55,008 nt of DNA from Candidatus Kerfeldbacteria bacterium CG15_BIG_FIL_POST_REV_8_21_14_020_45_12 (GTDB taxonomy: Bacteria > Patescibacteriota > Patescibacteriia > UBA9570 > XYC2-FULL-38-9), in NCBI GenBank assembly GCA_002781785.1, contig PFGC01000042.1, forward strand, positions 14,746 through 69,753, given 5' to 3'. The notes beneath the pieces are model-generated. The model saw only the letters and a program-made list of their open reading frames with translations, had not been told where the DNA came from and searched no databases. Below, piece after piece: positions 5,791 to 40,585 of the stretch. Numbering within the stretch: position 1 is the stretch's first letter; each line of letters begins with the position of its first letter. A program made the translations under genes and the position numbers.

Positions 5791-5839
5791 GACTAGAGTA
5801 TACCAAAAAAAAGTCTTTTTGTCTAGAGTGGCACCTTTG

Positions 5840-5896
5840 AAAAAAAGAGGAGCCCCGCACGCCGCCCGAGTGGATGTCCTCGGGTAGCGTGCGGGG
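5840..5896 (-). terminator. Intrinsic terminator of the GC-rich small secreted-protein gene
   Basis: Long GC hairpin: ccccgcacgc (5853-5862) pairs with gcgtgcgggg (5887-5896), with inner arms cccgag/ctcggg. On the minus strand it is followed by ctcctc and a 7-T run (plus-strand A-run 5840-5846). Confidence 0.5.
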
Positions 5897-15577: not shown

Positions 15578-15582
15578 AACAA

Positions 15583-16044
15583 TTAGTCCTCTTTGCCCTG
15601 AACTGGAGGAATCAGATGCCCCAACAAATATAATACAATCATCACCAGCGCTGTAGAAACTATGGCTGTCCAATACCACCCGACACCAACCGCCATCCCA
15701 ATCGCAGCGCACAGCCAAACACTAGCCGAAGTAGTCAGTCCCCGAATTTTATCATCACGAAAGACAATCATGCCGGCACCAAGAAAACCTACCCCCACCA
15801 CAATCTGGGACATAATCCGAGAAACATCTACCCCCGACTGAAGTTCGTGACCTGAAAAACCATACAGTGAGATTAACGTAAAAAGAGTGGACCCCATAGT
15901 TACTAAGCCCAAAGTACGCGGTCCGGCCTCCTTTTTATCAGCTCTGCGCTCAAATCCAACAACACCCCCCAGCAGCAGTGCTAAAGCAATTTGAGCAATA
16001 TAAATAAGTTCCTGATTCATAACTTCAGTATAAAGGAATCTCAC
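15583..16044 (-). CDS. MgtC/SapB-family membrane protein
   Basis: ALALLLGGVVGFERR motif plus four or five hydrophobic helices. The track start at 16044 is GTG; an ATG at 16020 (MNQELIY) is an alternative. Confidence 0.85.
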   Translation of the reverse strand: MRFLYTEVMNQELIYIAQIALALLLGGVVGFERRADKKEAGPRTLGLVTMGSTLFTLISLYGFSGHELQSGVDVSRIMSQIVVGVGFLGAGMIVFRDDKIRGLTTSASVWLCAAIGMAVGVGWYWTAIVSTALVMIVLYLLGHLIPPVQGKED

Positions 16045-16055
16045 TGAAAATCCAG

Positions 16056-16943
16056 CTAGACCTGTTGTCGAGGCGGTAAGGCCTCTACTGCCACAACAGG
16101 GCTTGGCGGGTAAATAATCTGTAGATCACCATCGGGCGTGAACTGCGCCGATTCTGCTCCAAGAATATATTCAGCCAAGGCACGTCGTGGGTCAGCCAAA
16201 CGAACCTCCGCCGGACCGTCGCTAAAGATTTTAACCCAATCCTCTTGTGAAAGTGGTCTTAACTTAGCATCATCAACCAATAATCTAATGCCGGCCATGG
16301 CCAACAGTCTGTCAGAGACCTCATCACCGCTCCCCCAATCACCTTCCCGAAAATTAAACCATTGCGCATTCCAACGCATCTCATTCATCTCGGGAGTAAT
16401 GTACTTCAAATGAGCCGGGTCAAGCCGTGCGACCGAAAAAATAACGCGCCATTCATCACTCATAGCACGCATCACTCTTTCTAACACACTGGGAAGGTTA
16501 AACTCCTCGGCCATTCGCTGTAGTTCAGGACGGCGCTCTGGCTCTTGTATAGTTATTGCAGCCAGCCACTCAAATGTTTTTGATAACTCATATAGCGCAC
16601 TCATTTCTTCAGCTGAATGCCCAGTAGTATTATTTTCAAAGCGATTCGCATCCCTGACGCGAGCCTGCAAAGCATCTTTAATATCTTCATCACTTGATTG
16701 CGGCACTTCTCCAACAGAGGTGCCGACAAGCTCCGCGTAACAAGACAGCATGAATGCCTCACGAAGAACGCCAATATTCCTATGATCTTCAATAGTTACG
16801 CGCTGTAGGGCTCGCACCTCAGGCGTCAAATCAACCAGCGGATCAAAACCAAAACTACGGCGCTCTGGCACGGTTTCACGATTACGGAGCAATGAACCTG
16901 CGCGCTCCCGACCGACTTGTAACTGACCATCTCTTCTTCTCAT
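16056..16943 (-). CDS. Hypothetical protein P3 (295 aa); member of the MRR..GRxRAxxL / LPPRxxV terminal-motif family
   Basis: N-terminus MRRRDGQLQVGRERAGSLL and C-terminus PDGDLQIIYPPSPVVAVEALPPRQQV. The start overlaps the P2 stop (ATGA). No signal peptide or TM segment, and no domain I recognise. Confidence 0.6.
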   Translation of the reverse strand: MRRRDGQLQVGRERAGSLLRNRETVPERRSFGFDPLVDLTPEVRALQRVTIEDHRNIGVLREAFMLSCYAELVGTSVGEVPQSSDEDIKDALQARVRDANRFENNTTGHSAEEMSALYELSKTFEWLAAITIQEPERRPELQRMAEEFNLPSVLERVMRAMSDEWRVIFSVARLDPAHLKYITPEMNEMRWNAQWFNFREGDWGSGDEVSDRLLAMAGIRLLVDDAKLRPLSQEDWVKIFSDGPAEVRLADPRRALAEYILGAESAQFTPDGDLQIIYPPSPVVAVEALPPRQQV

Positions 16944-17824
16944 AAGTTTGTTCGTGGCGGCAATGACCTCTCTTTAACCACCTCATTAAGAAAAGTGCAC
17001 TCAACGCGACCACTAGAGCCAACCCGAACAGCGTCGGCTGTTAAAAGAGCTTTCAAAGCTAAAAGTTCAGTGAGAATAAAGGCCTCTGTCGCAGTATTCG
17101 TAGCACCACCTGAGGCAACCTCATTAAGCTTTTCCTGCAACACTTTTTGCTGCTTAATAATTTTTTCCTCAAAACTCCGCATTGAAAAACCACCTGTTTC
17201 CAAATCATTAATCAAATCCCTCTCTGGGTGAATCATTCGTAAATACATCGCAGTCGGACAAGACAGTGCAAACAGTGCAAATTGATCACGAACCAACTCG
17301 CGATAGAGGCCAGAGTCATCACAAGTAATAGGCGGCTCCTCCGGAAACATAATTCGATGCATCAAAGCTAGCGGCAGCTCACTTGAATGTGACCGCAAGT
17401 GACTGCGCGATTCTCTTAAGCGCTTAAGAGGTGTTGATTCCAAAAGCGTCCTCCGTTCCATTGCTGAAATCGGTTGCCCAATTTGAGCCCAGGACAACAT
17501 TAGATCATAATCTTGACTATGAAACTGTCCTCCACGATTCAACGCTCTCGCAAAAGTGCCAAAAGATGTCCTACCAAAAAAATCTTTTTCTACCTCCTCC
17601 AACCTATCTGGCAACACTAATGACACCGCAGCCAAATGCATGCCCTCATACTGCATATCATTAAATCTGCCCGAAGCGTGCACATTAAACTCAAGAACTG
17701 CGCGTTGCTGGTCTTCGGTCAATCCATGTTCAAATTTAACCTCTTTAGCTGGCTCAGGCTCAATAGCAAGCTCCGTAGCTCGCAGTCTAATACCTTCAAT
17801 TCTACTACTACGATTGGCTCTCAT
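16940..17824 (-). CDS. Hypothetical protein P2 (294 aa); member of the same terminal-motif family
   Basis: N-terminus MRANRSSRIEGIRLRATELAIEPEP and C-terminus SSGRVECTFLNEVVKERSLPPRTNL. It starts 12 nt after the P1 stop. Confidence 0.6.
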   Translation of the reverse strand: MRANRSSRIEGIRLRATELAIEPEPAKEVKFEHGLTEDQQRAVLEFNVHASGRFNDMQYEGMHLAAVSLVLPDRLEEVEKDFFGRTSFGTFARALNRGGQFHSQDYDLMLSWAQIGQPISAMERRTLLESTPLKRLRESRSHLRSHSSELPLALMHRIMFPEEPPITCDDSGLYRELVRDQFALFALSCPTAMYLRMIHPERDLINDLETGGFSMRSFEEKIIKQQKVLQEKLNEVASGGATNTATEAFILTELLALKALLTADAVRVGSSGRVECTFLNEVVKERSLPPRTNL

Positions 17825-18014: not shown

Positions 18015-20870
18015 CTAATTAACCCACCCACTAGCCACACGCACTGCAAACGTACCGGAACCAAAAGGGAAAAAAGTGTGCTTTTCTTCACCCTCTTTAG
18101 TAAAAACTGAAACTGCTGACTGAGTATCTCCGTTGGTTCCAGCAATTAATCGATCTTCTTTCTGTTGATTTAAATCACCTCCACCCACAGTAGCTCCTGC
18201 CGTATATGACTCAGTAAAAACAGAGAAGCCTGGACTTATGGCTACTAACTGATCCTCATTTTTTTCAAACATCAAAGTATGTGATGAACTACTAACTGGA
18301 GTGACTGCTAAAACATCATTACCGCTACCAAAGTTAGTTCGCGCAACCCTTACGCCTCCATGAAAAGATTCATCGTAAACATTCATATTAGTCAGCACCG
18401 CTCCAGTGCGACCGTTGTATACCATAACCTGAGGTCCACCGCCTTGACCGGCACCAACTACGATTTCATCAATACCATCTCCGTTCCAATCAAGTCCCGT
18501 CACGTAAGTGCCGCCAGTAAAAACCCCATCCAGAGCCATAAACGACAAGATTTCTGAACCATTTTTTTCAAAAACACGCACGTGCGGTGACCCCCCTTCT
18601 CCCGGCACAGTCACAATTTCATCTAAACCGTCACCGTCAAAATCACCTGTCCCTACTCGTACGCCACCACTAAATCCTGGGTCATAAGCTAAAAATTGTT
18701 CGAGTCGCTCACCGTCTCCGTCAAACACGCCAACCAGAGGTAAGCTACCAGCATCCAAAGCTACTACAACTTCATCTTTTTTATCTGCATCAAACTGACC
18801 CACTGCCACTTCAACTCCCGTCCGCAAGTTCTCGTCAAAAGCATACCAAGTTTCTTCAAACGATCTATTTTTCAAATTATAAATCCTAACCTGCGGCGCA
18901 CCGCCCGGACCAGCTCCAACCACTACCCGTTCACGTGGATAAAACTTGCGGGTATTTTTCGTGGAGGTTGCTACGTTAGATAAATCGTCCTTGGCTCGCA
19001 CTCGATACTGATACCGCTTGTTCCGCTTCACACTCGAATCGGTAAAAGCTGTATCAGTGCTAGCTACAGAACCAATTTTCTTAAAATCACCATTGGCACT
19101 TAAATTTTTTCGCCTTACTATGTAGCGACTAACATGCTGGCCTTTGACTTTATTCCACTCAACCTTAACGCCGTCAGAGACCAGACTGGTTGTCACTCCT
19201 TCTGGCTCAGCCACCTCAGTATCAATAATGTACTCGTGCGTCGACGCTGTAACTGTCACATCATTCGCATTATCCAGAGACTTTAATCTCAAATAGTAAG
19301 AGACATCGTCTCCACTAATTTTACTACTTGGCTCAAACGATCGAGCGGTTTGAAAAGTTCCCTCCAACTCCGGATCAGCCTGCGCATCCGTTCCAAAATA
19401 TACATAGTACCCGGCAATACCATCAGGATCAGATGGTTCTGACCAGGAAAAATATGGCTTTCTGTCAGCCTTTCTAGCTCCATCGCTATAGGTTTTATTT
19501 AGACTAGCTGCGTTATAAGCAGAAATAGTAGGGGCCGGTGGATTATCCAACACTTCCAAGCCTGCCAGAGCGGTGGCAGCGTCTACTCTACCAACTCCAT
19601 ACTTAGATTCCAGTCCAGTATCAACAGCACTACTAGTAAGTACGTCATAAAATTGTGAGTCAGTAATGTCAGAACGTTCTGCTTTCAACAAAGCAGCTAC
19701 TCCCACGACTACTGGAGTGGCCATAGAAGTTCCACTCATGTAACCATAGTCTGTCGTAAAATCATTGGTTGGATCATCTGTGTACAAAGTTGAATAAATA
19801 TTCTCACCAGGAGCGGCAATATCCGCGCAATCAGTTCCATAGTTAGTGAAATATGAGGCCTCCCCATCATAGCCCACTGAGGTCACTCCAATTACATCAT
19901 CATAACAAGCTGGATAAAACCCCAAGTCATTTACACTAAGACCGTTATTGCCTAACGCTGAAACGACTAACACGCCATGACTTACGGCATATGCCACAGC
20001 GCTCTCCAGCGCCGAGGTAGTACCAAAACCACCCAAGCTCAAATTAATAATGCTAGCTCCATTGTCCACGGCATACTCAATACCCTCAGAAATTTCAGCA
20101 TCACCCCCTGCCCCTTCGTCGTCCAATACCTGAACCGCCATAATCGACACCTGCCAATTAACACCTGCTACACCAATTGAATTATTCCCCACTCCACCAA
20201 TAATTCCAGCCACGTGTGTACCGTGAGTGGTGCCACTGTCTACACCATTGTAATCATCGTCATTACTACCATTTGGTGAAGGTGTCGGATCACCATTGCC
20301 GTCAACAAAATCATATCCGTTTACATCATCAACATAACCATTGCCGTCATCATCAATACCGTTTCCGACAACCTCTCCCTCATTCACCCAAATATTATCG
20401 GCAATGTCTTCGTGATCAAGATCGACTCCAGAATCAATCACCGCCACGACAACTTCGCTAGATCCGGCCTGAGTGTCCCAAGCTGTCTCCGATGAAATAC
20501 TGACATCATCCTGATAATGATGCCATTGAAAAGCATACTTGGCATCGCTTGGCGTAGCCGTTGCTCGTCTGATTACCTCACGCTCAACTGTCAAAATAGA
20601 GGCGTCGCCCGCTAATTGCTCAACATAGGATTCTGCACTAACCTCCGCTGGAATTGTAACTGATTCAATTTCAGAAATACTAGGCTGCTCCCCCAACATA
20701 AATGCAGTCCAATCATTGATTGTAGGAGCGTAACGCACCAGGACAACATCTTCTGAGTATTCTGGAGTCGGAAAATTATCAGCCAAGACCGGTGAAATTC
20801 TAAAAAAAACAGCGCCCATCACGCCTGGAAGTAGCAACCATCGCCACTTTTTCACAAAATGAATCATCAA
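18015..20870 (-). CDS. Secreted subtilisin-like serine protease (S8) with FN3-like domains and C-terminal FG-GAP/VCBS repeats (951 aa)
   Basis: Signal/TM segment WRWLLLPGVMGAVFF. Catalytic triad AVIDSGVDLDH, HGTHVAGIIGG and SGTSMATPVV. FN3-like VKVEWNKVKGQHVSRYIVRRK...YQYRVRA. Repeats GDFDGDGLDEIV, LDWNGDGIDEIVVGAG and GQFDADKKDEVVV. Confidence 0.9.
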   Translation of the reverse strand: MMIHFVKKWRWLLLPGVMGAVFFRISPVLADNFPTPEYSEDVVLVRYAPTINDWTAFMLGEQPSISEIESVTIPAEVSAESYVEQLAGDASILTVEREVIRRATATPSDAKYAFQWHHYQDDVSISSETAWDTQAGSSEVVVAVIDSGVDLDHEDIADNIWVNEGEVVGNGIDDDGNGYVDDVNGYDFVDGNGDPTPSPNGSNDDDYNGVDSGTTHGTHVAGIIGGVGNNSIGVAGVNWQVSIMAVQVLDDEGAGGDAEISEGIEYAVDNGASIINLSLGGFGTTSALESAVAYAVSHGVLVVSALGNNGLSVNDLGFYPACYDDVIGVTSVGYDGEASYFTNYGTDCADIAAPGENIYSTLYTDDPTNDFTTDYGYMSGTSMATPVVVGVAALLKAERSDITDSQFYDVLTSSAVDTGLESKYGVGRVDAATALAGLEVLDNPPAPTISAYNAASLNKTYSDGARKADRKPYFSWSEPSDPDGIAGYYVYFGTDAQADPELEGTFQTARSFEPSSKISGDDVSYYLRLKSLDNANDVTVTASTHEYIIDTEVAEPEGVTTSLVSDGVKVEWNKVKGQHVSRYIVRRKNLSANGDFKKIGSVASTDTAFTDSSVKRNKRYQYRVRAKDDLSNVATSTKNTRKFYPRERVVVGAGPGGAPQVRIYNLKNRSFEETWYAFDENLRTGVEVAVGQFDADKKDEVVVALDAGSLPLVGVFDGDGERLEQFLAYDPGFSGGVRVGTGDFDGDGLDEIVTVPGEGGSPHVRVFEKNGSEILSFMALDGVFTGGTYVTGLDWNGDGIDEIVVGAGQGGGPQVMVYNGRTGAVLTNMNVYDESFHGGVRVARTNFGSGNDVLAVTPVSSSSHTLMFEKNEDQLVAISPGFSVFTESYTAGATVGGGDLNQQKEDRLIAGTNGDTQSAVSVFTKEGEEKHTFFPFGSGTFAVRVASGWVN

Positions 20871-21015
20871 CTAACTTGTTTTTTTGTTTTCGTACTTTAA
20901 CATTCTAACATTTTTTGACCATTTTGGCAAGGTCTTATGGCTTGGTTTTACAGTACGCAAATTTTAAAAACTTACCCAAAAAAAATCACAGTGGGATCAC
21001 CCAGTTATATTAATT

Positions 21016-21045
21016 TTGACAATATTAGCAACCATACGGTAAAAC
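21016..21045 (+). promoter_or_regulatory. Candidate promoter for the GC-rich HAD-like gene
   Basis: TTGACA (21016-21021), 18-nt spacer, TAAAAC (21040-21045). It sits in AT-rich DNA immediately left of the GC-rich block. Confidence 0.3.
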
Positions 21046-21091
21046 TCAACGACCACTTGAGGAATCCTCCCTAAGTGCCACCGGAGCCCGT

Positions 21092-21892
21092 ATGATCAAT
21101 GCAACTCGGTATCTAGACAGACAAGTCGTACATCCAGTGACCCTGGCCGCCAAGCTCCAAGCTCTGGCGGAAGTCACTACCAATACAGCTCCCCTGAGCG
21201 TCCAGCACCTGCTGGCCGATCTGGATGACTGTTCTCTGGACACGAGTCCGCGCACCGTCCATCTACTGGGAGACTTCCTGGATGATTCCTTCCCAGGAGA
21301 CTCCAAAGCAGCACAGGCGCTGGCCGCGGCGCAAAAGCTGGTAGAGCTGGGGCAGGTGCCATACCTGGCTCGCGAGCTCTGGTTGACTGTCATGGGACAA
21401 GAGGGCGACAAGCACATCGGTGATTGGTTCGCCTACTGGCAAGCCCACTTCTTCACCAACGAAGCGCTCGTCCACGACCTGCCGCACCCCGGCGTGGTGA
21501 AGTGGCTCCAAGGCCTAGACGCCAACTTCCCCAAAGTGGGATACCTGACCGGTCGACACCGACCCAACCCTAGCAGTCGACACCCATCTGGGATGGAGCT
21601 GGGCACCATGGCCACGCTCTGGAAGCATCGGTTCCCCCTGGGACCCCTCTACATGAAGGGCCAGTGGGGAGGAGACGACACCGCCTACAAGCAGGGCCTC
21701 TTCCAGCAGCTTCTGGCTGCAGGGGAAGTCTACCCCCTGGGCTACATCGACAACGAACCCAGCTGTGTCATCGCCCACCACGAGGTCATGACGGCCGCCT
21801 CCTTGCCCCACCTCTCGGTTTGGTTCAAGGGAGTCTGTCAGAAGCCAGCTGATCTCCCGCCGGATATTCTCGTGCTCGAATCTTTCGAGTAG
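21092..21892 (+). CDS. HAD-superfamily-like hydrolase (tentative), encoded in a GC-rich island
   Basis: 266 aa. Candidate HAD motifs in the expected order: HLLADLDDCSLDT (DxDx-), VGYLTGR (motif II Thr), YMKGQ/AYKQG (Lys), GYIDNEP (acidic motif IV). GGAG lies 5 nt before the ATG. Antisense ORFs here are GC artefacts. Confidence 0.45.
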   Translation: MINATRYLDRQVVHPVTLAAKLQALAEVTTNTAPLSVQHLLADLDDCSLDTSPRTVHLLGDFLDDSFPGDSKAAQALAAAQKLVELGQVPYLARELWLTVMGQEGDKHIGDWFAYWQAHFFTNEALVHDLPHPGVVKWLQGLDANFPKVGYLTGRHRPNPSSRHPSGMELGTMATLWKHRFPLGPLYMKGQWGGDDTAYKQGLFQQLLAAGEVYPLGYIDNEPSCVIAHHEVMTAASLPHLSVWFKGVCQKPADLPPDILVLESFE

Positions 21893-21974
21893 ACCAGCAA
21901 TTCGAGTCTGAAGTAAAAAACCAAGACTTAAGTTGCTTACTCTGAATGATTCGAGTTCTTTTTTTAACAACAAA

Positions 21975-21995
21975 TTCGGTTTTTCTTCGGTTATC
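21975..21995 (+). promoter_or_regulatory. Operator-like repeat, copy 1 (TTCGGTTTTTCTTCGGTTATC)
   Basis: Near-identical 21-mer to 22014-22034 (20/21 matches), 39 bp upstream of it. Each copy contains TTCGG twice at 11-bp spacing. Confidence 0.45.
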
Positions 21996-22007
21996 CACAG
22001 GGACTAT

Positions 22008-23066: not shown

Positions 23067-23672
23067 ATGACTAATCTCACGCCAAAGATATTTTGTATTG
23101 GCCTGTCTCGGACCGGCACCACTACATTAACTCAGGCCCTTCGAATACTTGGATTTACAGCGTTGCATTATCCGCTTGGCTGTTTCGAAATACAAAGAGA
23201 CCAGCTTTTACCTATTCCTGAACGATTTGCTTCAGCTGATGCTTTTACTGACACTCCGATTGCCCTGACCTATCAAAAGCTTGATAGATTATTTCCAGGA
23301 TCAAAATTTATCCATACTATAAGACCCATAGAAAGTTGGCTCAGCTCCTGCGAAAAAATTATTGGGCGACCCATTACAAAAGAACAGCCTCTGTGGTGGA
23401 GAGATGAACAAAATGGTCTATGGGAAAATGATGGCCCAAAAAAAATGATTCTTATTAGAGAGCAACTATTTGGTTCGCCACTTTTCGATAAAGAAAAATA
23501 CCGTCAAGCGCATTCTCGTCACGCCAGTGAAATCGCTGAATACTTTACCGGTCGCTCTCAGGATATTCTTAATATAAGTATATCCCAAGGTGATGGTTGG
23601 GAATTGATCTGTAAATTCCTCAATCTTCCGATTCCAAGCGAGCCCTTTCCTCACTTAAACAGCTCGATCTAA
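23067..23672 (+). CDS. Sulfotransferase-family protein (Sulfotransfer_4-like P-loop fold)
   Basis: PAPS-loop-like IGLSRTGTTTL near the N-terminus, FPGSKFIHTIRPIESWLSS, and C-terminal GWELICKFLNLPIPSEPFPHLN, typical of that family. Confidence 0.65.
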   Translation: MTNLTPKIFCIGLSRTGTTTLTQALRILGFTALHYPLGCFEIQRDQLLPIPERFASADAFTDTPIALTYQKLDRLFPGSKFIHTIRPIESWLSSCEKIIGRPITKEQPLWWRDEQNGLWENDGPKKMILIREQLFGSPLFDKEKYRQAHSRHASEIAEYFTGRSQDILNISISQGDGWELICKFLNLPIPSEPFPHLNSSI

Positions 23673-24478
23673 AATAATTGCCCCTGGTGGGCATATACCT
23701 GACCAGTTTCATGTATAGCCCAGACATTTGAAACTTGAAATTTATCCTTGTTGTTCATCTGAACACAATAGGCATCAAATCTTTCACCATCATAATCTAG
23801 GATCTCTACATTCAAAGTGACCACCTCTTTTTTGTTTAACTCATCTACCTGAAAATATTCTATCTCCAACGATTCGTGTTTTTTAAAGGCCTCAGCCAAC
23901 CTATCAGCAATAGACTGACTGCCATCCGACCACTTTACTGGAATTGGCTTTCTTTCACCGCCAGATGGATAAAATATACGCCCGTGCTTTAATCCGTATT
24001 CATAAACATCTCTTGTCACCTCAACATCCATCAGGCAGTACTTGGCCAAAGATTCTAAATCTCCAGAACGATACCAACGAATTGCATCCAAACCATCGCC
24101 AGACTTTCCCTTATACAAAGTTGCCTGCGCCACATTATCTAGTTTCACCCGATGTCCAAGTGTATTATTTATCTCCTCCAAAATATCTAGGTGCGGCAGC
24201 GCAGCCAGGTCTATGTTAGGAAAATAAGGCTGCATAACAGGAACATCGAAATTCTTAGAATTAAACCCGATTAACATTGGTTTCTCATCTATCAATATTT
24301 TTTCAAGCATTGGCAGCTCGTCCTCTAAAAAGCCGAACATCTTATTCTGAGAATAAGAATATACACCAATATAGGAGATGCCCAACTGTTCTTTATTATC
24401 ATACCCGCCAACTTCATCGAAAGTTTTCTGGGTCTCTACGTCGAATACGACGCGATTTGATGAAGTGTGATCTAGCAT
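23669..24478 (-). CDS. RNase H-fold 3'-5' exonuclease (PolB-exo/YprB-like) fused to a C-terminal WYL-like domain
   Basis: ExoI VFDVET, ExoII GFNSKNFDVPV, ExoIII YCLMDVEVT. The C-terminal ~70 aa (ERFDAYCVQMNNKDKFQVSNVWAI) resembles the WYL..AYC....R.F.l.RI pattern. Start moved to ATG 24478 (MLDHTSS). Confidence 0.6.
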   Translation of the reverse strand: MLDHTSSNRVVFDVETQKTFDEVGGYDNKEQLGISYIGVYSYSQNKMFGFLEDELPMLEKILIDEKPMLIGFNSKNFDVPVMQPYFPNIDLAALPHLDILEEINNTLGHRVKLDNVAQATLYKGKSGDGLDAIRWYRSGDLESLAKYCLMDVEVTRDVYEYGLKHGRIFYPSGGERKPIPVKWSDGSQSIADRLAEAFKKHESLEIEYFQVDELNKKEVVTLNVEILDYDGERFDAYCVQMNNKDKFQVSNVWAIHETGQVYAHQGQLF

Positions 24479-24516
24479 TACCTTAATGTATACAAAATAT
24501 CGACAAGCGTGAAGCC

Positions 24517-25293
24517 CTAGGCTTGCTCGTCCTGCAACATTAATTCTATCTGCTGCTTGGCCGGACAAATTGATAGGTAGTCGCAATTCTTACAATATTT
24601 GTTTGGCGTCGGACCAAACTCACGTTCTTTTTCAATTTCAGCTACTCGTTCCTTAACAATTTCCACAGCTTCATCAGCTTCATCTTGAGATATCTCAACC
24701 GTATGCCACTCCCAGGTTGGCAAATACAAATAACTAGCTTTCGTTACAGGTTTCTTTTGGTTTGCTGAAACAATTAACGCATACAAAATAAGTTGCAATG
24801 TATTTACATCGTTAGGGTCAAACTTGCCTGTCTTATAATCAATCACATGCAGTGACCCATCCTCCAGCTCATCAGCTCGGTCAATCCTACCAATAATTTT
24901 CAGTTGGGGGCTTACCTCTACATCATAGTAATCCTCGAGCATAGCCGGTGTTACAGAGGTGTCCATTCTATGAGCAAATAATCTAAGCATGCTTAGCGCC
25001 TTCACTCCCCACTTAGCCTCATCCTCTCTATTGGCAAAGCCCTCCCTATTTTCACGCCACCTCCGACGCAATATCATTTCAAGATTTTCGTAGGTACGGT
25101 CCGACACATCAAGCTGCTGATAAAAATCATGCAAAGCATTGTGGACGTGAGCCCCCATGGTCAAATATGGTTTCGGCGTTTTATATTCCTTATCAAGATG
25201 ATCAATGTACGTAAACTTATACTGCTGCGGGCAGAGTTCAAACATATTCAATCTAAACGGAGAAGCTCGGAACATGCTACCGAAAGTGCTCAT
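24517..25293 (-). CDS. PD-(D/E)XK nuclease, Cas4/AddB-type with a 4-Cys cluster
   Basis: N-terminal Cys (FELCPQQYKF), core GRIDRAD...LHVIDYKTGK, and C-terminal CKNCDYLSIC. Confidence 0.75.
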   Translation of the reverse strand: MSTFGSMFRASPFRLNMFELCPQQYKFTYIDHLDKEYKTPKPYLTMGAHVHNALHDFYQQLDVSDRTYENLEMILRRRWRENREGFANREDEAKWGVKALSMLRLFAHRMDTSVTPAMLEDYYDVEVSPQLKIIGRIDRADELEDGSLHVIDYKTGKFDPNDVNTLQLILYALIVSANQKKPVTKASYLYLPTWEWHTVEISQDEADEAVEIVKERVAEIEKEREFGPTPNKYCKNCDYLSICPAKQQIELMLQDEQA

Positions 25294-26101
25294 CTACAAT
25301 TAACTTCAACTCCTCCTCATCGGCGACCCAATAATACAAGTCTTTTCCGAAGTCCGGCGTATAAATACGAGCACTGGCACCAGGCACCTCGCCTTCTTCT
25401 ATTTCACCGATACTAACATTACCTCGTCTGGCAATGCCGGCACCGACTAAAAAGTGCGTCAACCTAGTTTTACTGTAAGTCAGTCTTGCATCATTTGAAT
25501 CAGCGAAAAACTGCTGCAAAGCCTTAACCTTAGCAGGCTCCTTAATCTTGGTTAGTAGCGAGCGAAATATTTCACGACCATCAGCCTGGCGATCAAAATC
25601 TGATCTACCATCAGTAAATCTGTCACGCACCACGGCTAAGGCGTCAGCGCCATTTACATTTTTACCGTTTAACGTCGCTCCTCCGAGTGAATCAATGATT
25701 TCCTCAAAGCTTCCAAAGGTGACCTCCAAAGTGGCGTCAACTTTTATATCAAGTAAATCCTCAACAACGCTAGTAGTCAGAGTGTAATTTCCAAGTAGCT
25801 TTCCGTCATCTGACCGATCGCCTAGTGCATAAAAATGAGTAATCTTTTGCATTCCCCATTCGTCGTGATCAATTTTAGTGTCGCGTGGTATTGTTAAAAA
25901 ATATGGTTTCTCTTTGCCTTTTTTTGGTATGGACACAACAAACAAAACATCTGACCTAGCTCTCTCGGTTCCTCTCTGGTCAGATCCAATTACTAGCACA
26001 TTATACCTATCTGGTGCTGACACATATAAAAAAACTACAAGTGCGCCCGCCAACACAAACCAGCTAAGCAATAGACCAATAATAAATGCCAAAAATCGCA
26101 T
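25277..26101 (-). CDS. LytR-CpsA-Psr (LCP) family cell-envelope phosphotransferase
   Basis: N-terminal TM followed by NVLVIGSDQRG..ERARSDVLFVVSI...FLTIPRDT. Confidence 0.85.
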   Translation of the reverse strand: MRFLAFIIGLLLSWFVLAGALVVFLYVSAPDRYNVLVIGSDQRGTERARSDVLFVVSIPKKGKEKPYFLTIPRDTKIDHDEWGMQKITHFYALGDRSDDGKLLGNYTLTTSVVEDLLDIKVDATLEVTFGSFEEIIDSLGGATLNGKNVNGADALAVVRDRFTDGRSDFDRQADGREIFRSLLTKIKEPAKVKALQQFFADSNDARLTYSKTRLTHFLVGAGIARRGNVSIGEIEEGEVPGASARIYTPDFGKDLYYWVADEEELKLIVDEHFR

Positions 26102-26213: not shown

Positions 26214-27173
26214 TTACCTATCTAGAAGTTTAGAGAAATATTCCATATATGATCTCTGCATTTGTGCGGTTTGCTTCTCGTGTCCTGGGGGAAAATAGAT
26301 CATAGGCTTACTATTTATCTCCACTAAATATGGACGGCCGCGTTCAAAGAAAAAATCAACTGAAAATAGTTTGTCTGGATATACAGCAAAAGACCTCAAT
26401 ACTCTCTGAACGTAGGGCTTGAGCACCTTTGGAATTTTAGAAATAGGCACAAAAATCACACCTCCACCAAGAGACATATTACATAATTTTGTACCCGGAG
26501 CCGCCGTTCTAATATAAGAAATAATTGGCTTGTCACCTGCAAAGATTATTCTAAAATCATGAATACCTCGATACAATCCAGGGACTCCGCCTTGTGTATC
26601 AACAAACCTCTGCACTATTGTTAAACCACTAATATTAACCTGTCGAGCTTTCTGCTTAGAAATAATCTGTACTCCGTCACCTCCATATCCCAAACGCGGC
26701 TTCATAACAACCTCAGCTGACGGAATCTTTTTTAGAGCCTCGTGCAGATCAGTTTTCGTACGGACTAAAAATGTTTCCGGCGTAAAATCTGCAAAGCTGG
26801 TTGCCGTTAGCATTTTATCAGAAGAAATCAAATCTAGCTCCCAAGCATTTACCACATGAAAGCGCTCATTTATTTCCATTTTTTTTGTGAGCGTGGCATA
26901 GCTGAGTGTGCTCTTGTCCATAATCACATCAGGTAGAATCGGCTTACGCAGTTTTATCCACCGACCACCTTTCCATCCCCACGCCCGCGTAAATGAACCA
27001 TCTTTATACCACTGCTGTGAAAACCTGACTGGCTCCATTCCATATTCATCACGTGCCAAAGTAAAAAATGACTCATACGCCTCTCGTTGATCCGACTTCT
27101 TATCGGAAAAAGGTAGCGGCTGGTTCCAGTCGCTACCGGGGTACATTACTCCAAATATCTTTCGCTTAGCCAT
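26214..27173 (-). CDS. ATP-grasp ligase C (YheC/YheD- or RimK-like)
   Basis: VVMKPRLGYGGDGVQII, HDFRIIFAGDKPIISYIRTA..GTKLCNMSLGGG, and YLVEINSKP. Confidence 0.6.
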   Translation of the reverse strand: MAKRKIFGVMYPGSDWNQPLPFSDKKSDQREAYESFFTLARDEYGMEPVRFSQQWYKDGSFTRAWGWKGGRWIKLRKPILPDVIMDKSTLSYATLTKKMEINERFHVVNAWELDLISSDKMLTATSFADFTPETFLVRTKTDLHEALKKIPSAEVVMKPRLGYGGDGVQIISKQKARQVNISGLTIVQRFVDTQGGVPGLYRGIHDFRIIFAGDKPIISYIRTAAPGTKLCNMSLGGGVIFVPISKIPKVLKPYVQRVLRSFAVYPDKLFSVDFFFERGRPYLVEINSKPMIYFPPGHEKQTAQMQRSYMEYFSKLLDR

Positions 27174-27179
27174 AAAAAA

Positions 27180-28214
27180 TTACTTAAACATGGCTCTTAC
27201 TATCTGACGTGACACATTGCGGGCTTTTCCTTCTTGTGGAAAATGATGCATAGCAAAGTCAGGATGCTGATTTAACTCGAGAACAACGCCATCAGTATGG
27301 CGTACTGACTTGCTAATGTCAGTGCACAAAAAATCAAGTCCAGCCAAACGTAAATTCATCACCTTGCAAATTCTCAGCGCCAGCTCCACATTTGCCTTGC
27401 TGATCTTGTCTGTGACATCGTGAACTTCACCACCAGCACCGAAATTGCAAACGTTTTTTAACATTACTCGTCTATCCGCTGACGGAATAGACCGCATGTT
27501 CAATCGTTGTGACTTTAACTTATTTTTTAGCTCAGCATCAATGCTGATAGGCCCAAGCTTTATCTCGTGAACCTGCTTTCGCTTTTCATTCTTTTCTCTG
27601 ATTAAAGCTCCAATATTACTCACACCGTCACCGACAACATAAGCAGGAATTCTATGTAAAACACCGATTACCTTGTTATCCAAAACTAAAACCCGATAAT
27701 CATTTAAATCCTGATGAAACTCCTCAACCAAAATACTTGAGTAGGTCTGGAAACCTTTCTTCAAGTATCTCATCAAGTCGCGCTGCCCAGAGATATTTGT
27801 AACGACGCCAAGACCCTTTAGCGTGCCGTAGGTAGGTTTAACCACCAATGGAGCTCTTAGACCACTAACACTCCAATCTCCCTTGGCAAAAGACTTTTTC
27901 TGAATTCTAACAGAGCGTGGTACCGGAATTCCAGCATCTCTCAAAATTGAGTTAGTATAAAATTTATGATCCGCAATGTCAGCTCCTACGTAGTTATTCA
28001 AAGACGTAATAGCGCCTCTGATAAAATGACTCTGTCTCCCACAGGAAACTCTGAATATATTTAAATCTTCATAGACATCAACTCGGTACTTCAGATCAAG
28101 AGCCTCCTCTGCAAGTAAACGCGAGAGTGGTCGCAAATTACCAAGCAAACTTTGAGCGTTGTCTTTGGTGATCCGGATAAGTGAATTCGACATAAAAAAA
28201 GTATTAGTCAACAA
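27180..28214 (-). CDS. ATP-grasp ligase B, cyanophycin-synthetase G-domain-like, no Mur-ligase domain
   Basis: ADHKFYTNSILRDAGIPVP, LVVKPTYGTLKGLGVVTNI, YVVGDGVSNIGALIREKNEKR, LAGLDFLCTDISK, VLELNQHPDFAMHHFPQEGKARNV. Confidence 0.7.
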   Translation of the reverse strand: MLTNTFFMSNSLIRITKDNAQSLLGNLRPLSRLLAEEALDLKYRVDVYEDLNIFRVSCGRQSHFIRGAITSLNNYVGADIADHKFYTNSILRDAGIPVPRSVRIQKKSFAKGDWSVSGLRAPLVVKPTYGTLKGLGVVTNISGQRDLMRYLKKGFQTYSSILVEEFHQDLNDYRVLVLDNKVIGVLHRIPAYVVGDGVSNIGALIREKNEKRKQVHEIKLGPISIDAELKNKLKSQRLNMRSIPSADRRVMLKNVCNFGAGGEVHDVTDKISKANVELALRICKVMNLRLAGLDFLCTDISKSVRHTDGVVLELNQHPDFAMHHFPQEGKARNVSRQIVRAMFK

Positions 28215-29241
28215 AAACCGCTTTCATTAATTCAGGAATCACATCAGTCGGCCCTCCTGCTCTAGGAAAATAATGCAGAACAACACCTGGAGATGCGTTA
28301 ACTTCTAAAATACCACCATTGCCTGGACCTATCGGTTTTGTAATATCATGGCAAAGCACGTCTACACCAGCCAAGCGTAACCCCATGGCTTCTGTAGCTC
28401 TGACCGCAAAATCAATATTAGCTTGTGCTACTTGATCGGTGCAATTAACAGAGTAACCACCGCTTGATAAATTAGCTACATTCATTAACCGAACATTAAC
28501 TCCATTTTCTGGAATATCCGCAATACGAAATCCCTGTTCCGCCAAGGTTTGATGCAACTCACGGCCCACTCTAACAGCTCCAAATCTAAGCTTCCACTCC
28601 TTACGTCTTTTGGCATTAACCGCATGAATCAATTCTTCTATAGTACTTGTACCGTCACCAACAACCTCTCCGGGATGACGCTGCGCAGCTGCCAATAACT
28701 TGCCGTCAAGCACCAACAACCGATGATCAGTCATGCGGCCGTAATATTCTTCAATAATAACTGATCCATACAATTCAAAAGACTCATCTAGAACATCAAA
28801 AAGAGTTGGCTCATCAACAATGTTTGTCACAACACCTTGACCCTTAAGAGTTCCCACCTCTGGCTTAACCACCAGTGGAAAAACATCCGGTCGTGAAAAA
28901 CCAAGCGCACTAACAGTTCGACTTGTTAGTCTTCTATACTCAACTCTTGGCAAAGAAATACCACTTGGACAAGGCACGCCCTCCTGAGCAAAGCGCTCCT
29001 TCGCCATACCCTTGTGGTCAGCTAGATAAGTTGCAGATCCATCATTCAATGGAACAATTGCATCAACTACTAAAGCTGATTTACCCTGATGAGACATTCT
29101 GAATACTCGCTTTGGGATAAGATATTCTACGGAATATCCCAGCTTAGTTGCCGCCTTGGCATATTCATTATTCATCCATTCCCAAGACAACATGACCGGC
29201 GGATCGTTTGCAACGTCGTCCAAAGCAATAATAGAATTCAT
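28204..29241 (-). CDS. ATP-grasp ligase A, paralog of B (cyanophycin-synthetase G-domain-like)
   Basis: LVVKPEVGTLKGQGVVTNI, EVVGDGTSTIEELIHAVNAKRR, LAGVDVLCHDITK, ILEVNASPGVVLHYFPRAGGP. It overlaps B by 11 nt. Confidence 0.7.
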   Translation of the reverse strand: MNSIIALDDVANDPPVMLSWEWMNNEYAKAATKLGYSVEYLIPKRVFRMSHQGKSALVVDAIVPLNDGSATYLADHKGMAKERFAQEGVPCPSGISLPRVEYRRLTSRTVSALGFSRPDVFPLVVKPEVGTLKGQGVVTNIVDEPTLFDVLDESFELYGSVIIEEYYGRMTDHRLLVLDGKLLAAAQRHPGEVVGDGTSTIEELIHAVNAKRRKEWKLRFGAVRVGRELHQTLAEQGFRIADIPENGVNVRLMNVANLSSGGYSVNCTDQVAQANIDFAVRATEAMGLRLAGVDVLCHDITKPIGPGNGGILEVNASPGVVLHYFPRAGGPTDVIPELMKAVFVD

Positions 29242-29253
29242 GTAATCTTTTTT

Positions 29254-29517
29254 CTAATCTTCGGTTCTATATCTCTCCTTCAAGCTATCTATAGTATTTT
29301 CGACAGTCTCGAGTGTTTTTTTCAATTCCTCCGCTAATTGCAGTCCTCGCTCAAATCTCTTTAACCCTTCGTCTAGCGAAACCTCCTCTTCATCAAAGGA
29401 GGCTACAATTTCTTCAAGCTCAGTAAACTGCTTCGCAAATGATTGAGCAGCCACAGCTTTTGAGCCGGCCTTCTTACTCACAGTTGGAATGGCTTTTTTT
29501 GCGGACATAGTAGTCAC
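29254..29517 (-). CDS. xseB: Exodeoxyribonuclease VII small subunit
   Basis: FTELEEIVASFDEEEVSLDEGLKRFERGLQLAEELKKTL, with a Lys/Ala-rich N-terminal extension. Confidence 0.85.
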   Translation of the reverse strand: MTTMSAKKAIPTVSKKAGSKAVAAQSFAKQFTELEEIVASFDEEEVSLDEGLKRFERGLQLAEELKKTLETVENTIDSLKERYRTED

Positions 29518-34751: not shown

Positions 34752-36206
34752 CTAGCTTACCTTTTTGGAGCCTGAAATCTCCTCTATCACCGGCTTAACC
34801 TTAACCGCCAGCTTAGTTGAGTCAATCAAAAAATGAGACAAATTTCTGCGCCCGATTAAAATGGGGTATTTCAAATGCGCCCGATCAAATAAATTTGGTT
34901 CAATCGTCATACTGTGACCTGCTAATGAAACCGTCAGCTTTATATTCATTCTGATCGAAACACCATGCGAAGAGCTAACCACCGACAGGCGTGTAATATC
35001 ACTGTGTTCCTTTTTTAATCTCTTGGATAGTTCAGGAAGAATTTCATGGGCCTCTTCCTTGGTGAGGTTGTCGGGCAAGCTCTCGTTTAAGTATGCATCT
35101 ACCGCATCTCCATACCCCAGCTCTCGTGCCAGCCCAATGTCTATAGAGCTATCATCAGCTCCAGTGTCAATTTTAGCTCGGACATTTTTACGAATTTTTT
35201 CTTTACCAAACAATCTAATTGATTCAACTAAACCAATGACCTGTCGTCCTGTCACACTCTCTACCTGATCCTCCAGCTGACCACCAAATAACTCACGGGC
35301 TATGGTAATACCTCGCTCAGGAGTTGGAACTTTTAATCCACGAATTCTTTCCAAGCGCTCTCTTAGTGGTGATAGATTTGCAATCTGAATTCCCAACCCT
35401 GGACGCGCATTTAATTCCAGCACTACTGGTCCTCGCTTTTTATCCACTGAAATATCTACGCCACAATAGGATAACTTCACTACCCTGGCAGCCAGCACCG
35501 CTGTTTTCATTATCTCATTCCAATATGGAACTTTAATTCCTCTAAGTTGAACTTTTGTGTCAGGATGCCTATCAATTATTTTTTCATATAACCACGACTT
35601 CATCACGACATGCGTTGTCATGCCAGTTGTTACGTCAACGCCAATGCCTAGCCCACCCTGCGCTAGATTGGCTTTCCCTCCTGACTTTATAGTTGGCACT
35701 CGCAACATAGCCATCACCGGAACGTTGTTGTATACAATAACTCTAATATCAGGAATGCCGGATGTCGAAAATCTTTTGTATAAAGGATCAACGGTCAACC
35801 TAGCCTCGAACAACACAATGTCCGGTGTATTCAACAGAGAAAAGTTTCCATCTAAGATATTTCTAACATGCGCCAATAGATCTTCTTTACTTAACTCCCG
35901 TTTATTTGTCGATAACCAATTGCCATTTTTTAGACGATTGAATATCAAGACAATACCCTCACCACCCATTCCACGATTTGGTTTAATCACAAAACTATCA
36001 GGCAGTGTATCCCAATCAAAATTCAAGGCTTCCTGGGTTGTCCTGATCACAGCCAACATTTCGGCAGTACTCAAGCCATGCTTGCGTAAAACTTCCTTGG
36101 TTTCCAATTTATTATCGGCTGTATACCGGGCCTTTCGCTTGTTTGCTCGCAGGTAATCAGCACTGCGTGCATTCATGCCTAAGACCTTAGTTCTGTTTCT
36201 CGCCAT
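34752..36206 (-). CDS. Alpha-L-glutamate-ligase-related ATP-grasp (RimK-related) fused to a C-terminal retropepsin-like (DUF785/RimB-type) domain
   Basis: N-terminus VLGMNARSADYLRANKRKARYTADNKLETKEVL and FVIKPNRGMGGEGIVLI (ATP-grasp), LELNARPG. The C-terminal half has VRAKIDTGADDSSID (D-T-G-A aspartyl motif). Confidence 0.75.
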   Translation of the reverse strand: MARNRTKVLGMNARSADYLRANKRKARYTADNKLETKEVLRKHGLSTAEMLAVIRTTQEALNFDWDTLPDSFVIKPNRGMGGEGIVLIFNRLKNGNWLSTNKRELSKEDLLAHVRNILDGNFSLLNTPDIVLFEARLTVDPLYKRFSTSGIPDIRVIVYNNVPVMAMLRVPTIKSGGKANLAQGGLGIGVDVTTGMTTHVVMKSWLYEKIIDRHPDTKVQLRGIKVPYWNEIMKTAVLAARVVKLSYCGVDISVDKKRGPVVLELNARPGLGIQIANLSPLRERLERIRGLKVPTPERGITIARELFGGQLEDQVESVTGRQVIGLVESIRLFGKEKIRKNVRAKIDTGADDSSIDIGLARELGYGDAVDAYLNESLPDNLTKEEAHEILPELSKRLKKEHSDITRLSVVSSSHGVSIRMNIKLTVSLAGHSMTIEPNLFDRAHLKYPILIGRRNLSHFLIDSTKLAVKVKPVIEEISGSKKVS

Positions 36207-37818
36207 GTTTCATCTGTTTTAAAACCTTGTGGAAGCGAATATATTCCATCAACCTTAATCCCGAGAATTTGCCCATGAAATAGTTGAACAATAGGGTGAG
36301 AAGAATCAACTCAGGATAGGCCAATATCGTCGTCTTAAACAACGTCCAGTCTCCAATAAAGAAACCGATTACAGAAAGAGCTAGGGTTTCCAAGGTGAGC
36401 TTTACTGCTGTTTTATATCCCTGCTCAACTTGAACCGATACAAAATGCTCAGTCAATACTGTCATGATTAGAATTGGGAATATCGATATCGTAATAAATC
36501 CAGTTTTTCCCAAAACCGCCCCCAGCAAAAACATGAAAAAAATTGCTAGGGCCAGGAATGACAAGACCAATGCCATCCGCGGCAAGTACAACACTCTGAA
36601 CTTACGAGCCAACAGGCGTCCGAGCGTTCCAAGTACAATAATCGCAGCAAACACAGTTATACCGTACTTCAAACCAGTCGCTAAAAATGTTAAAGCGATG
36701 ACCGTAGGTGCAAAAATACCGAAGGCCTTAATCCCAACCAGCTGACGACCCGCTGCAATTACCGTGGCCATTAGCGGCAACATCAAAATCAAATACAACG
36801 AGTTCACAGGCACACCTTTATTGATCATGTAATTCATGGCGTAAGACATGAAATTAAAGGGACCAAGCTCTCTCAAGCCTCTCTCTGTATATGCATTAAT
36901 CAATTGATGATTGGCGTCTACTCTATTCAAACTAGCTTGCAAGGACTCTGGGCTCTTGGCACGAATAACATCATCTAAAATCTTTTCATCCGACACCACA
37001 ATATAACGAGGATTAATCGACTGAAAAGTACTTTGCGCAGTTCGAGCGCTCGTGTTTAAAGATTGATCATTGTTGATGGCAACAATTGCCTTGTCTGGAA
37101 AACCAAAAGGTTGAATTGAGTCTTCACCAGACAACGCCTCAATTCTAGACAACTCAATTAGAGAATTTAAACCAACGTTACCAGCAGTCCAAGTTATTAT
37201 AATATCAGACGCTACTACATCCTCTCGTTTTTTTGCGAGCTTCTGAGCAATATTTTGAACAGTCAAAAATTCTTGATCGACTCCGCTATCACGCACGGTG
37301 ATCAAAAGAACCCCCTGGGTCAGGGCATAATCATGTAATTCATCTAGAGCTTCTTTATCAACACTTTGATCTGTGATCAGTAGCATTAGCGTATCCTGCA
37401 CTGACACAATAATACTTGCACTACTTGCCTCGTAATTATCATCACCCTCTTCACCAACAGTTGCATCTAGAGTAACTCTATACGTCCCAGGAGAATCGTA
37501 AGCATAAGTCGCGTCAATTCCTCCGGCCACATTACCGTCTCCAAAATCCCAAACATAACTAACATCCTTACCCTCTCGACCAGTTGAAGCAGATGCGTCA
37601 AAAAGAATCGTGCGACCAACTCCAACGTTAACATCCTCTCCCGCATTCGCGTTGAGAGGCTCTTTATTTAAACTTTCATCAACAGCCTCATCAACACTAA
37701 CCTGATCTGCGTCAACTTCCTGAGCAAGACTAGTAGCTGGCATTACGCCAATTAAAATAGAGGCTGTAAAAAAAACTGCCAGGATTTGATAATTGAGTTT
37801 TGAAGAAATAACTTTCAT
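36187..37818 (-). CDS. Signal peptide, PKD domain and C-terminal 7TM module (7TM_transglut/UUP1-like) membrane protein
   Basis: Signal ILAVFFTASILIGVMPATSLAQE. PKD VSYVWDFGDGN..YAYDSPGTYRVTLDATV. C-terminal polytopic region RQLVGIKAFGIFAPTVIALTFLATGL... It overlaps the ATP-grasp gene by 20 nt. Confidence 0.65.
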   Translation of the reverse strand: MKVISSKLNYQILAVFFTASILIGVMPATSLAQEVDADQVSVDEAVDESLNKEPLNANAGEDVNVGVGRTILFDASASTGREGKDVSYVWDFGDGNVAGGIDATYAYDSPGTYRVTLDATVGEEGDDNYEASSASIIVSVQDTLMLLITDQSVDKEALDELHDYALTQGVLLITVRDSGVDQEFLTVQNIAQKLAKKREDVVASDIIITWTAGNVGLNSLIELSRIEALSGEDSIQPFGFPDKAIVAINNDQSLNTSARTAQSTFQSINPRYIVVSDEKILDDVIRAKSPESLQASLNRVDANHQLINAYTERGLRELGPFNFMSYAMNYMINKGVPVNSLYLILMLPLMATVIAAGRQLVGIKAFGIFAPTVIALTFLATGLKYGITVFAAIIVLGTLGRLLARKFRVLYLPRMALVLSFLALAIFFMFLLGAVLGKTGFITISIFPILIMTVLTEHFVSVQVEQGYKTAVKLTLETLALSVIGFFIGDWTLFKTTILAYPELILLTLLFNYFMGKFSGLRLMEYIRFHKVLKQMKHGEKQN

Positions 37819-40476: not shown

Positions 40477-40519
40477 ACTCCCGCTGGTCCCATGCTTGCC
40501 AGCGGGAGTCTTTCGTTTT
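40477..40519 (+). terminator. Intrinsic terminator after the isomerase gene, the 3' part of a larger structured element (40437-40519)
   Basis: actcccgctgg (40477-87) pairs with ccagcgggagt (40499-509), followed by ctttcgtttt. Confidence 0.65.
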
Positions 40520-40585
40520 AGGCTTAACTCACATCTGACCATAACCTCTTACTCCAGCGTTAGATTGAAACCCTCCCCTCCACAT

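Follow-up and report, generated by a model that had tools for sequence, protein, structure and literature searches.

A variable cassette of ATP-grasp ligases, including free-standing members of the CphA-G/GshF branch, in Patescibacteria

What might be made by three ATP-grasp ligases whose genes lie side by side in a small Patescibacterial genome? The genes, here called A, B and C, are found in a stretch of 55,008 nucleotides (nt; the window) of contig PFGC01000042.1 of Candidatus Kerfeldbacteria bacterium CG15_BIG_FIL_POST_REV_8_21_14_020_45_12. An initial annotation, made from the letters of the window, had placed three open reading frames (ORFs) on the minus strand at 28204-29241 (A), 27180-28214 (B) and 26214-27173 (C), and had raised the question whether they form an unfamiliar amide-bond-forming system, a split cyanophycin synthetase or a group of housekeeping ligases. 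All three ORFs are present at these positions. We find that the locus cannot be called an ordinary cyanophycin synthetase, whether whole or split, and that it is a variable cassette within a large, mostly stand-alone sub-branch of the CphA-G/GshF ligases.

A (345 amino acids, aa) and B are paralogs, as had been proposed. They are 35% identical over 316 residues (expectation value, E, 1e-67), and all four motifs quoted in the initial annotation occur in both translations. Both match the curated profile of cyanophycin synthetase (TIGR02068, 862 positions) over one segment, B at model positions 160-472 (E 1e-74, 252 bits) and A at 167-471 (E 7e-60, 203 bits), and neither reaches the curated cutoff of 850 bits. 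Only about 30 residues precede model position 160 in B or 167 in A, and the chains end at positions 471 (A) and 472 (B); thus neither protein has the N domain or the M domain, which in CphA1 span residues 1-161 and 488-876, respectively (PMC9427784). In the PDB, the best sequence match of B is CphA1 (7lg5, residues 194-480, E 6e-42). Among NCBIfam profiles, B also matched that of GshF in its C-terminal ATP-grasp part (E 7e-57) and that of Ngg, the N-acetylglutaminylglutamine amide (NAGGN) synthetase (E 3e-39). In the GshF model NF002688, A and B matched the C-terminal module only (positions 439-753), with 131 and 193 bits, respectively, against a cutoff of 425 bits. The RimK and Ddl profiles were far weaker for both proteins (1e-17 or worse).

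The predicted fold of B gives the same picture. The AlphaFold2 model (predicted local distance difference test, pLDDT, 90.8) matched the G domains of CphA1 and CphA2 in Foldseek with template-modelling (TM) scores of 0.75-0.82 (E about 1e-30; 0.82 to CphA1). GshF was the second-ranked fold (TM 0.67-0.76), with E of about 1e-30 to 1e-27 across the CphA/GshF branch, while Ddl and RimK came at E 1e-12, about 18 orders of magnitude weaker. The G-domain ATP-grasp fold, with its G-omega insertion and catalytic residues, is present. Since the profile, PDB and fold matches are all limited to the G domain, A and B are, as judged from sequence and model, free-standing G-type ATP-grasp proteins of the branch that holds the CphA G domain, the C-terminal module of GshF and Ngg. 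This agrees with the earlier view that A and B resemble the ATP-grasp part of CphA only and stop before its M domain. Nor are these housekeeping genes of the Ddl or RimK kind, which had been named as the alternative, the profiles of A and B and the fold of B favouring CphA-G/GshF. To our knowledge, the fused enzymes CphA, GshF and Ngg are the only three through which this branch has been known.

Do A and B, then, retain what is needed to make cyanophycin? K220, K261, E300, R309, D431, E450 and N452 (CphA1 numbering) make up the ATP, Mg and acyl-phosphate machinery of CphA1. All of them are retained in A, in B and in all 19 G-type proteins from the corresponding gene slot and its relatives, as found by mapping the functional residues of TeCphA1 (PMC9427784) on an alignment of these 19 proteins and eight CphA1 sequences. 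R323 and N394, which contact the Asp side chain in CphA1 (PMC9427784), are also retained in A. Arg458 of CphA1 holds the alpha-carboxylate of the incoming Asp and is required for aspartate binding (PMC9427784); this position is Val in A, Ala in B and never Arg in the 19 slot proteins, whereas Arg458 and Ser396 are present in nine of nine CphA1-size proteins. Position 396 is Ser in A and Gly in B, and that of Gly456 is occupied by Asp in B. Glu215, the residue with which CphA1 binds the primer's Arg side chain (PMC9427784), is replaced by Tyr in A and Asp in B, and the position is variable among orthologs. The G domains of CphA1 form dimers, and residue 215 extends from one partner into the active site of the other. 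The P-loop reads GTLKG in A and B, one residue longer than the GNHG of CphA1, and its Lys occupies the place of the catalytic His267. The C-terminal HxxPxxGxxRNV motif of CphA1 is present in B.

A and B thus resemble the CphA1 G domain (TIGR02068; 7lg5, 7wae) in ATP-grasp fold, G-omega insertion and about 30% identity, and share its K220, K261, R309, D431 and E450, but the residues that define cyanophycin chemistry are missing from them. Because Arg458 is lost and the P-loop altered, the N and M domains are missing and the proteins fall in a clade apart from CphA1 (see below), a cyanophycin product would not be expected. Nor is a split cyanophycin synthetase supported: there is no M-domain partner in the 55-kb window, and Arg458 is absent even in the G-type protein of L007, a related locus with a free-standing Mur ligase (see below). 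The only Mur ligase in the window (14252-15718) was considered as such a partner and rejected; it is a genuine MurE (TIGR01085, 319 bits against a cutoff of 257), 22% identical to the Mur ligase of L007. A label of cyanophycin synthetase on a G-domain-only protein without Arg458 should not imply a capacity for cyanophycin. Such genes bear this label in some sources, and a study of Saccharimonadia infers cyanophycin synthesis from such labels (bioRxiv 10.64898/2026.09.16.751625), on genes that may or may not be of the G-only type.

C (319 aa) is a third ATP-grasp ligase, of a divergent GshB/RimK/LysX type. Its Pfam matches are all weak (GSH-S_ATP 7e-8, YheCD 5e-7, RimK 3e-5, and also ATP-grasp_3). 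The YheCD match (PF14398) scores 29.7 bits against a gathering threshold of 26.8, but covers residues 125-177 only, that is 51 of 255 model positions, and GSH-S_ATP scores higher. TIGR00768 (RimK) and TIGR01380 gave 29 bits each (29.1 for the former), where the cutoffs are 143.4 and 299 bits. The AlphaFold2 model of C (pLDDT 91.4) is closest in fold to GshB (1gsa, E. coli glutathione synthetase; the best match), RimK (5zct) and LysX/ArgX, with which it shares a TM of about 0.65 and the ATP-grasp catalytic motifs, but only 14-17% identity; its relation to B is at superfamily level only (E 0.009). The call of C as a third, RimK-like ATP-grasp can be kept, the resemblance to RimK being one of fold. 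The family of C is small and lineage-restricted (7 matches), and its invariant residues (K158, G164-G165, D206/R208, N232, D273, E285 and N287) indicate that C is probably an active enzyme. From their residues, all three proteins are predicted to be competent ligases.

The three genes are packed tightly. A lies 12 nt after xseB (29254-29517, minus strand; exonuclease VII small subunit, Pfam Exonuc_VII_S), C follows B after 6 nt, both as had been stated, and a LytR-CpsA-Psr (LCP) gene follows C after 112 nt. The 11-nt overlap originally assigned to A and B, in contrast, depends on a TTG start of B at 28214 (27180-28214, 344 aa). The ATG at 28193 is the start in the database gene call (P0001) and is position-equivalent in 14 of 14 homologs, and with it the A/B and B/C junctions share a pattern of TAA, a T-rich stretch and ATG. 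On these grounds B more likely extends from 28193 to 27180 on the minus strand (337 aa), giving a predicted gap of 10 nt to A. In a promoter and terminator scan, no terminator-like coding-strand site was found at any junction of the A, B and C genes, and two minus-strand matches lay inside A and B; the terminator count of the scan was near the shuffle expectation, and operon boundaries could not be drawn from it, except for a promoter-like site ahead of LCP.

Is this arrangement peculiar to one contig? A block running from ruvA to xseAB, the ligases, LCP and a Cas4-like gene was found in related genomes with changing ligase content. The slot between xseAB and LCP holds A, B and C in the window and in its nearest relative, L009. 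In L017 and L018 it holds a G-type gene, an inverted G-type gene and a C-type gene, followed by LCP; in L010 five ATP-grasp genes with xseB amid them; in L011 two G-type genes, xseB, a RimK-type gene and DUF3541; in L005 a G-type and a RimK-type gene, xseB, a C-type gene and a 93-aa G-type remnant; in L008 and L015 two G-type genes; and in L007 a G-type gene, a free-standing 420-aa Mur ligase and a RimK-type gene. The slot thus contains two to five ligases; it usually includes a second G-type, and often a C-type or RimK-type. The position of xseB within the ligase run differs in L005, L010 and L011. Wherever a slot of this kind was recovered to its downstream end, which excludes L009 and L011 because they stop earlier, LCP comes directly after the ligase run. 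The C-type gene immediately precedes LCP in the window, L010, L017, L018 and L022, and in L005 with the 93-aa ORF in between.

The Mur ligase of L007 (9019-10281) has the B ortholog on one side and a RimK-family ligase on the other. It has no Mur N-terminal domain, matches TIGR02068 at positions 479-860 (E 1e-46), finds CphA (7lgm) as its best PDB match and has an intact P-loop, GTKGKTT; scans of species genomes and metagenome contigs yielded no close relative of it. Two side observations concern gene integrity in this slot. The 93-aa ORF of L005 (7607-7888), which separates the C-type gene from LCP, shares about 41-43% identity with the final 53-54 residues of B-type proteins; it is a relic of a G-type gene, from its C-terminal third, and a sign of gene decay in the slot. 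In L004, a contig of the same population, the gene that follows B (4879-5895) was called as 338 aa with N6_N4_Mtase and GSH-S_ATP matches at the contig end, which could be strain variation or an assembly chimera.

B orthologs (45-72% identity) were found in L005, L007, L008/L015, L009, L010 and L011; L016 has one as a singleton. Thus each orthologous slot examined has one, except those of L017 and L018, whose two G-type proteins are about 35% identical to B. A has a single close ortholog, P0032, 61% identical, among 5.8 billion proteins searched, whereas in the other loci the second G-type shares about 30-45% identity with A and with B alike. In comparison with L009, identity is 72% for B, 63% for C and 61% for A, and 62% for xseA, 59% for xseB, 53% for the nucleotidyltransferase and 47% for FemAB. 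Since the conservation of A, B and C matches or exceeds that of their neighbours, the three genes are, by this sequence comparison, under purifying selection; the slot varies in gene content, not in gene quality.

We next considered how far such proteins extend beyond this lineage. B was used for an exhaustive HMMER search, which retrieved 8514 relatives at E < 1e-3 and 719 at E < 1e-30. More than half of the 150 best cluster representatives are stand-alone proteins of about 320-370 aa (83), while 49 have two or three complete G-type domains, 10 are intermediate and 8 are of CphA1 size. In a neighbour-joining tree, the slot proteins all fall in a clade of 83 members (80 stand-alone and 3 single-domain proteins of 460-575 aa), with CphA1 and the fusions placed in other clades. 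The stand-alone state would thus not be rare by itself. Tandem G-type proteins of 640-2400 aa were seen in metagenomic data (P0154, P0157, P0164, P0170, P0172, P0179, P0239 and others), and some multi-G proteins bear extra domains (acylphosphatase, PGA_cap (CapA), LPG_synthase_C and TPR). By analogy with such chains, G-type domains acting in twos and threes appear to be a recurrent theme. Most of what a metagenome scan with the B alignment yielded was canonical fused CphA1, the exceptions being L024, L025 and L055, and a scan of the species-genome collection with B gave no match. As a control, G and M were always fused in about 70 canonical CphA1 loci. A search of the available literature found no description of free-standing or multi-domain G-type ligases and no characterised member.

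What, then, would the three proteins do? In ATP-grasp ligases, ATP phosphorylates a carboxylate to an acyl-phosphate, which is then attacked by an amino group. The CphA G domain, the GshF module and Ngg in this way extend the alpha-carboxylate of a peptide or N-acyl-amino acid by one free amino acid, and GshB and RimK carry out the same kind of C-terminal extension. Our preferred explanation, which we hold tentatively and with somewhat less than even confidence, is that A, B and C are soluble, catalytically competent carboxylate-amine ligases that work as a set. Each would form an acyl-phosphate and couple it to the amine of an amino acid, and together they would extend a C terminus stepwise to give a short non-ribosomal peptide, or a repeating one if they act iteratively. 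The product would not be cyanophycin, and its length or composition would probably depend on the lineage, because the relatives swap accessory ligases around a usually retained B-type. The step order, identity, destination and shared nature of this product we infer, in contrast to the integrity, fold, family, residues and cassette variation of the genes, which were read from the data above.

Two kinds of observation favour a set: the tight packing of the genes (12, 10 and 6 nt) and the recurrent co-location of two to five ligases in relatives. That G-type domains work together is further suggested by the 49 of 150 representatives that carry two or three of them in a single chain. The multi-enzyme amide-bond-forming system first suggested for this locus is therefore supported by complete predicted catalytic sets, by conservation at least equal to that of most neighbours and by the two to five ligases in the slots of relatives. 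Side-by-side ATP-dependent amide ligases, presumably adding one residue each, are also found in the MurC-F pathway and in ATP-grasp clusters near LdmS homologs (PMC9486568); unlike these, A, B and C belong to the CphA-G/GshF and GshB-like branches, and no acceptor such as UDP-MurNAc was identified. LdmS itself, an L-amino-acid ligase, was considered as a relative and rejected, being absent from the solved-structure matches of B.

The most likely destination of the product would, in our view, be the envelope; it might be a branch on peptidoglycan or another wall polymer, or the product of an Rlo-like system. The hint comes from the genes in the same co-directional string (FemX-like, YvcK, nucleotidyltransferase and LCP) and from a pair of G-type genes beside Rlo-like genes in locus L055. 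In the order of transcription, the string reads ruvC, an RloB-like 7TM gene, an ATPgrasp_ST-retropepsin fusion, ruvA, the FemX-like gene, the nucleotidyltransferase, YvcK, a HAD-family gene, an 80-aa ORF, xseA, xseB, A, B, C, LCP, the Cas4-like gene and an RNaseH-like gene; a yebC-like gene lies further upstream of ruvC on the same strand. LCP proteins are transferases that attach glycopolymers to peptidoglycan, and the gene here (25277-26101, minus strand) matches Pfam LytR_cpsA_psr at 1e-18 and TIGR00350 with 63.2 bits against a cutoff of 62.3. Pfam hits and the ORF map also agree with the initial annotation in placing LCP downstream and FemAB and the nucleotidyltransferase upstream in one co-directional string.

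The Rlo-like pair (34752-37818, minus strand; Pfam and NCBIfam) lies near the head of the string that ends in A, B and C. Its first gene encodes a 543-aa RloB-like 7TM_transglut protein with PKD domains; the second, overlapping it by 20 nt, encodes a 484-aa RloC-RloA-like fusion that joins an ATPgrasp_ST ligase (TIGR02291-like, 270 bits) and a retropepsin-like RimB/RloA domain. From these domains, the pair appears to be a Patescibacterial counterpart of the rloABC system of P. aeruginosa, whose products affect osmotic tolerance, morphology, biofilm and envelope phenotypes; RloB was given as 96% proteobacterial in the same paper (PMC11957051). In the unrelated metagenome contig L055 (101-6166), two stand-alone G-type genes (339 and 333 aa) come directly after an Rlo-like pair, and in L020 (23-5566) a G-type gene lies 2.6 kb from an Rlo-like pair. 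This may point to G-type ligases and the Rlo-like system being linked in function.

Several points weigh against reading A, B and C as a set with an envelope product. The gene order around them is conserved across unrelated genes (ruvA, xseAB and the Cas4-like gene), and because the lineage keeps unrelated genes in order too, the adjacency of LCP and FemAB says little for an envelope role. Distant stand-alone G-type genes sit singly in unrelated contexts (P0186 and P0100 lie among nucleotide-metabolism genes). The fusion proteins form separate clades and lend support by analogy only, and the clades themselves come from a single neighbour-joining tree without bootstrap support. R323 and N394 are conserved throughout the branch, including the multi-domain and stand-alone groups, and so are uninformative on specificity. 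Lastly, the substrate, the product and a shared intermediate of A, B and C rest on inference.

The strongest competing explanation, which we nevertheless consider unlikely, is a cyanophycin-like poly(amino acid) synthetase made of separate subunits, with a storage or capsule-type polyamide other than beta-Asp-Arg as its product. B would extend the backbone iteratively, A (or the M-like ligase of L007) would add a second residue or side chain and C would cap or decorate the polymer. The closest solved and curated relatives are indeed CphA G domains, a CphA-M-like Mur ligase directly follows the B ortholog in L007, and some multi-G fusions carry the PGA_cap (CapA) domain of poly-glutamate capsules. 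CphA2 (7ta5, 8fxh; TM 0.75 to the B model) would be the precedent, its G-type site doing all the productive chemistry and alone polymerising dipeptides (PMC10273328), but unlike A and B it retains in its own chain an N domain and, in vestigial form, an M domain. The N domain anchors the polymer in CphA1 and CphA2, and neither A nor B has it; moreover, Arg458 is lost, residue 215 is variable, the window has no M-like gene, G and M are always fused in the control CphA1 loci, and no cyanophycinase-like gene was seen within the 55 kb of the window.

Distinctly improbable, in our estimate, is a soluble cytoplasmic peptide made by the same chemistry, glutathione- or NAGGN-like, and serving as a thiol buffer or osmolyte. 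The profile matches of B to the GshF ATP-grasp and to NAGGN synthetase would fit it, as would glutathione synthetase as the best fold match of C and the C-terminal module of GshF (3ln6, 3ln7) as the second-best match of A and B in profile and of B in fold, with a residue 458 that is likewise non-basic (PMC9427784). Yet GshF has a gamma-glutamyl-cysteine ligase domain, which is missing from A and B, and neither such a ligase nor a GNAT partner was found in the window. A change from two to five ligases between close relatives would also be unusual for the pathway of a core metabolite. Patescibacteria, furthermore, have little amino-acid biosynthesis to spare for such a product.

We regard as quite improbable a third possibility, that the ligases add a RimK-like tail to the C terminus of a specific protein, for example XseB. 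RimK and LysX, to which C and the RimK-type proteins of the relatives are similar, act on protein C termini; xseB lies inside the ligase run in L005, L010 and L011, and XseB in this lineage mostly ends in acidic residues (TED, DAE, LDD, DEE, DAD). However, XseB ends in KK in L008 and in DPS in L005, and acidic C termini are common among XseB proteins in general. In the G-type branch, the known enzymes have small peptides or polymers as substrates rather than proteins, and no protein with a Glu/Asp-rich tail, a substrate that the initial annotation had suggested looking for, was evident among those encoded in the window. Least probable of all is a merely coincidental clustering of independent genes through the co-directional packing of a streamlined genome: the string does hold unrelated genes (ruvA, xseAB, the HAD-family gene) and G-type genes do occur singly, in distant relatives and in L016 and L019, but multiple ATP-grasps recur in the slot from one lineage to the next even though genes there have been rearranged, inverted and turned over, an independent G-G pair exists elsewhere (L055), and G-G fusion proteins are common.

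Two further candidate identities were rejected. Membership of the GAK system was dismissed, the matches being weak and far below cutoffs, with YvcK passing its own model. A role as graspetide maturases (graspetides being peptides made on the ribosome and modified after translation) was also dismissed: no NCBIfam maturase model was among the matches of A, B and C, and PsnB-type structures were only distant fold matches of B and C. No candidate precursor ORF was found in the 6-12 nt gaps around the three genes.

The A, B and C genes are also present on a 746-kb contig; the genome is small, the relatives are labelled Patescibacteria, and the region is found in DNA metagenomes from groundwater and aquifers. 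All sequencing runs that contain the region were of this kind, with no RNA run among them. Elsewhere in the window, a secreted-looking 951-aa subtilisin (Peptidase_S8; 18015-20870, minus strand), whose C-terminal half bears FG-GAP-like repeats, keeps the same position in L001, L003, L005 and L022. The genes at 23669-25293 (minus strand), encoding a PDDEXK/Cas4-like nuclease (258 aa) and, overlapping it, an RNase_H_2/DNA_pol_B_exo2-like protein (305 aa), lie directly downstream of LCP in all relatives and are among the best conserved of the block (61-77% and 42-65% identity, respectively). Local GC is about 0.50 at 20900-22000 and 0.42-0.45 elsewhere; a 266-aa ORF at 21092-21892 (plus strand) has no recorded Pfam match in precomputed gene tables and is conserved in close relatives. 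No Pfam match was obtained for two ORFs at 16056-17824 (295 and 294 aa) or for one at 40496-42220 (574 aa); the first two, which also lack NCBIfam matches, are adjacent and of equal size, but a comparison showed that they are not paralogs. At 46522-47220, a 232-aa protein with a T4SS_pilin domain lies beside a solute-binding protein and a second nucleotidyltransferase. No tRNA, tmRNA or Rfam match at gathering thresholds was found across positions 1-55008.

The locus of A, B and C brings to light a large family of free-standing and multi-domain relatives of CphA-G and GshF, and the compact three-gene set, with its natural variants of two to five ligases, offers a system that can be directly expressed and assayed. 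On a broader view, which we think unlikely as it stands, the G-type ligases and their relatives with two or three domains would be a modular assembly line for peptides that uses neither ribosomes nor non-ribosomal peptide synthetases and is sometimes joined by a CphA-M-like Mur ligase; it would make a new envelope peptide of Patescibacteria, heteropolymeric or of defined length, which swaps of the cassette would change and which may be coupled to the Rlo-like system. If A, B and C do make a new peptide or poly(amino acid), they would add to the few peptide-forming systems that are independent of ribosomes and non-ribosomal peptide synthetases, and might explain a surface feature of these ultra-small episymbiotic bacteria.

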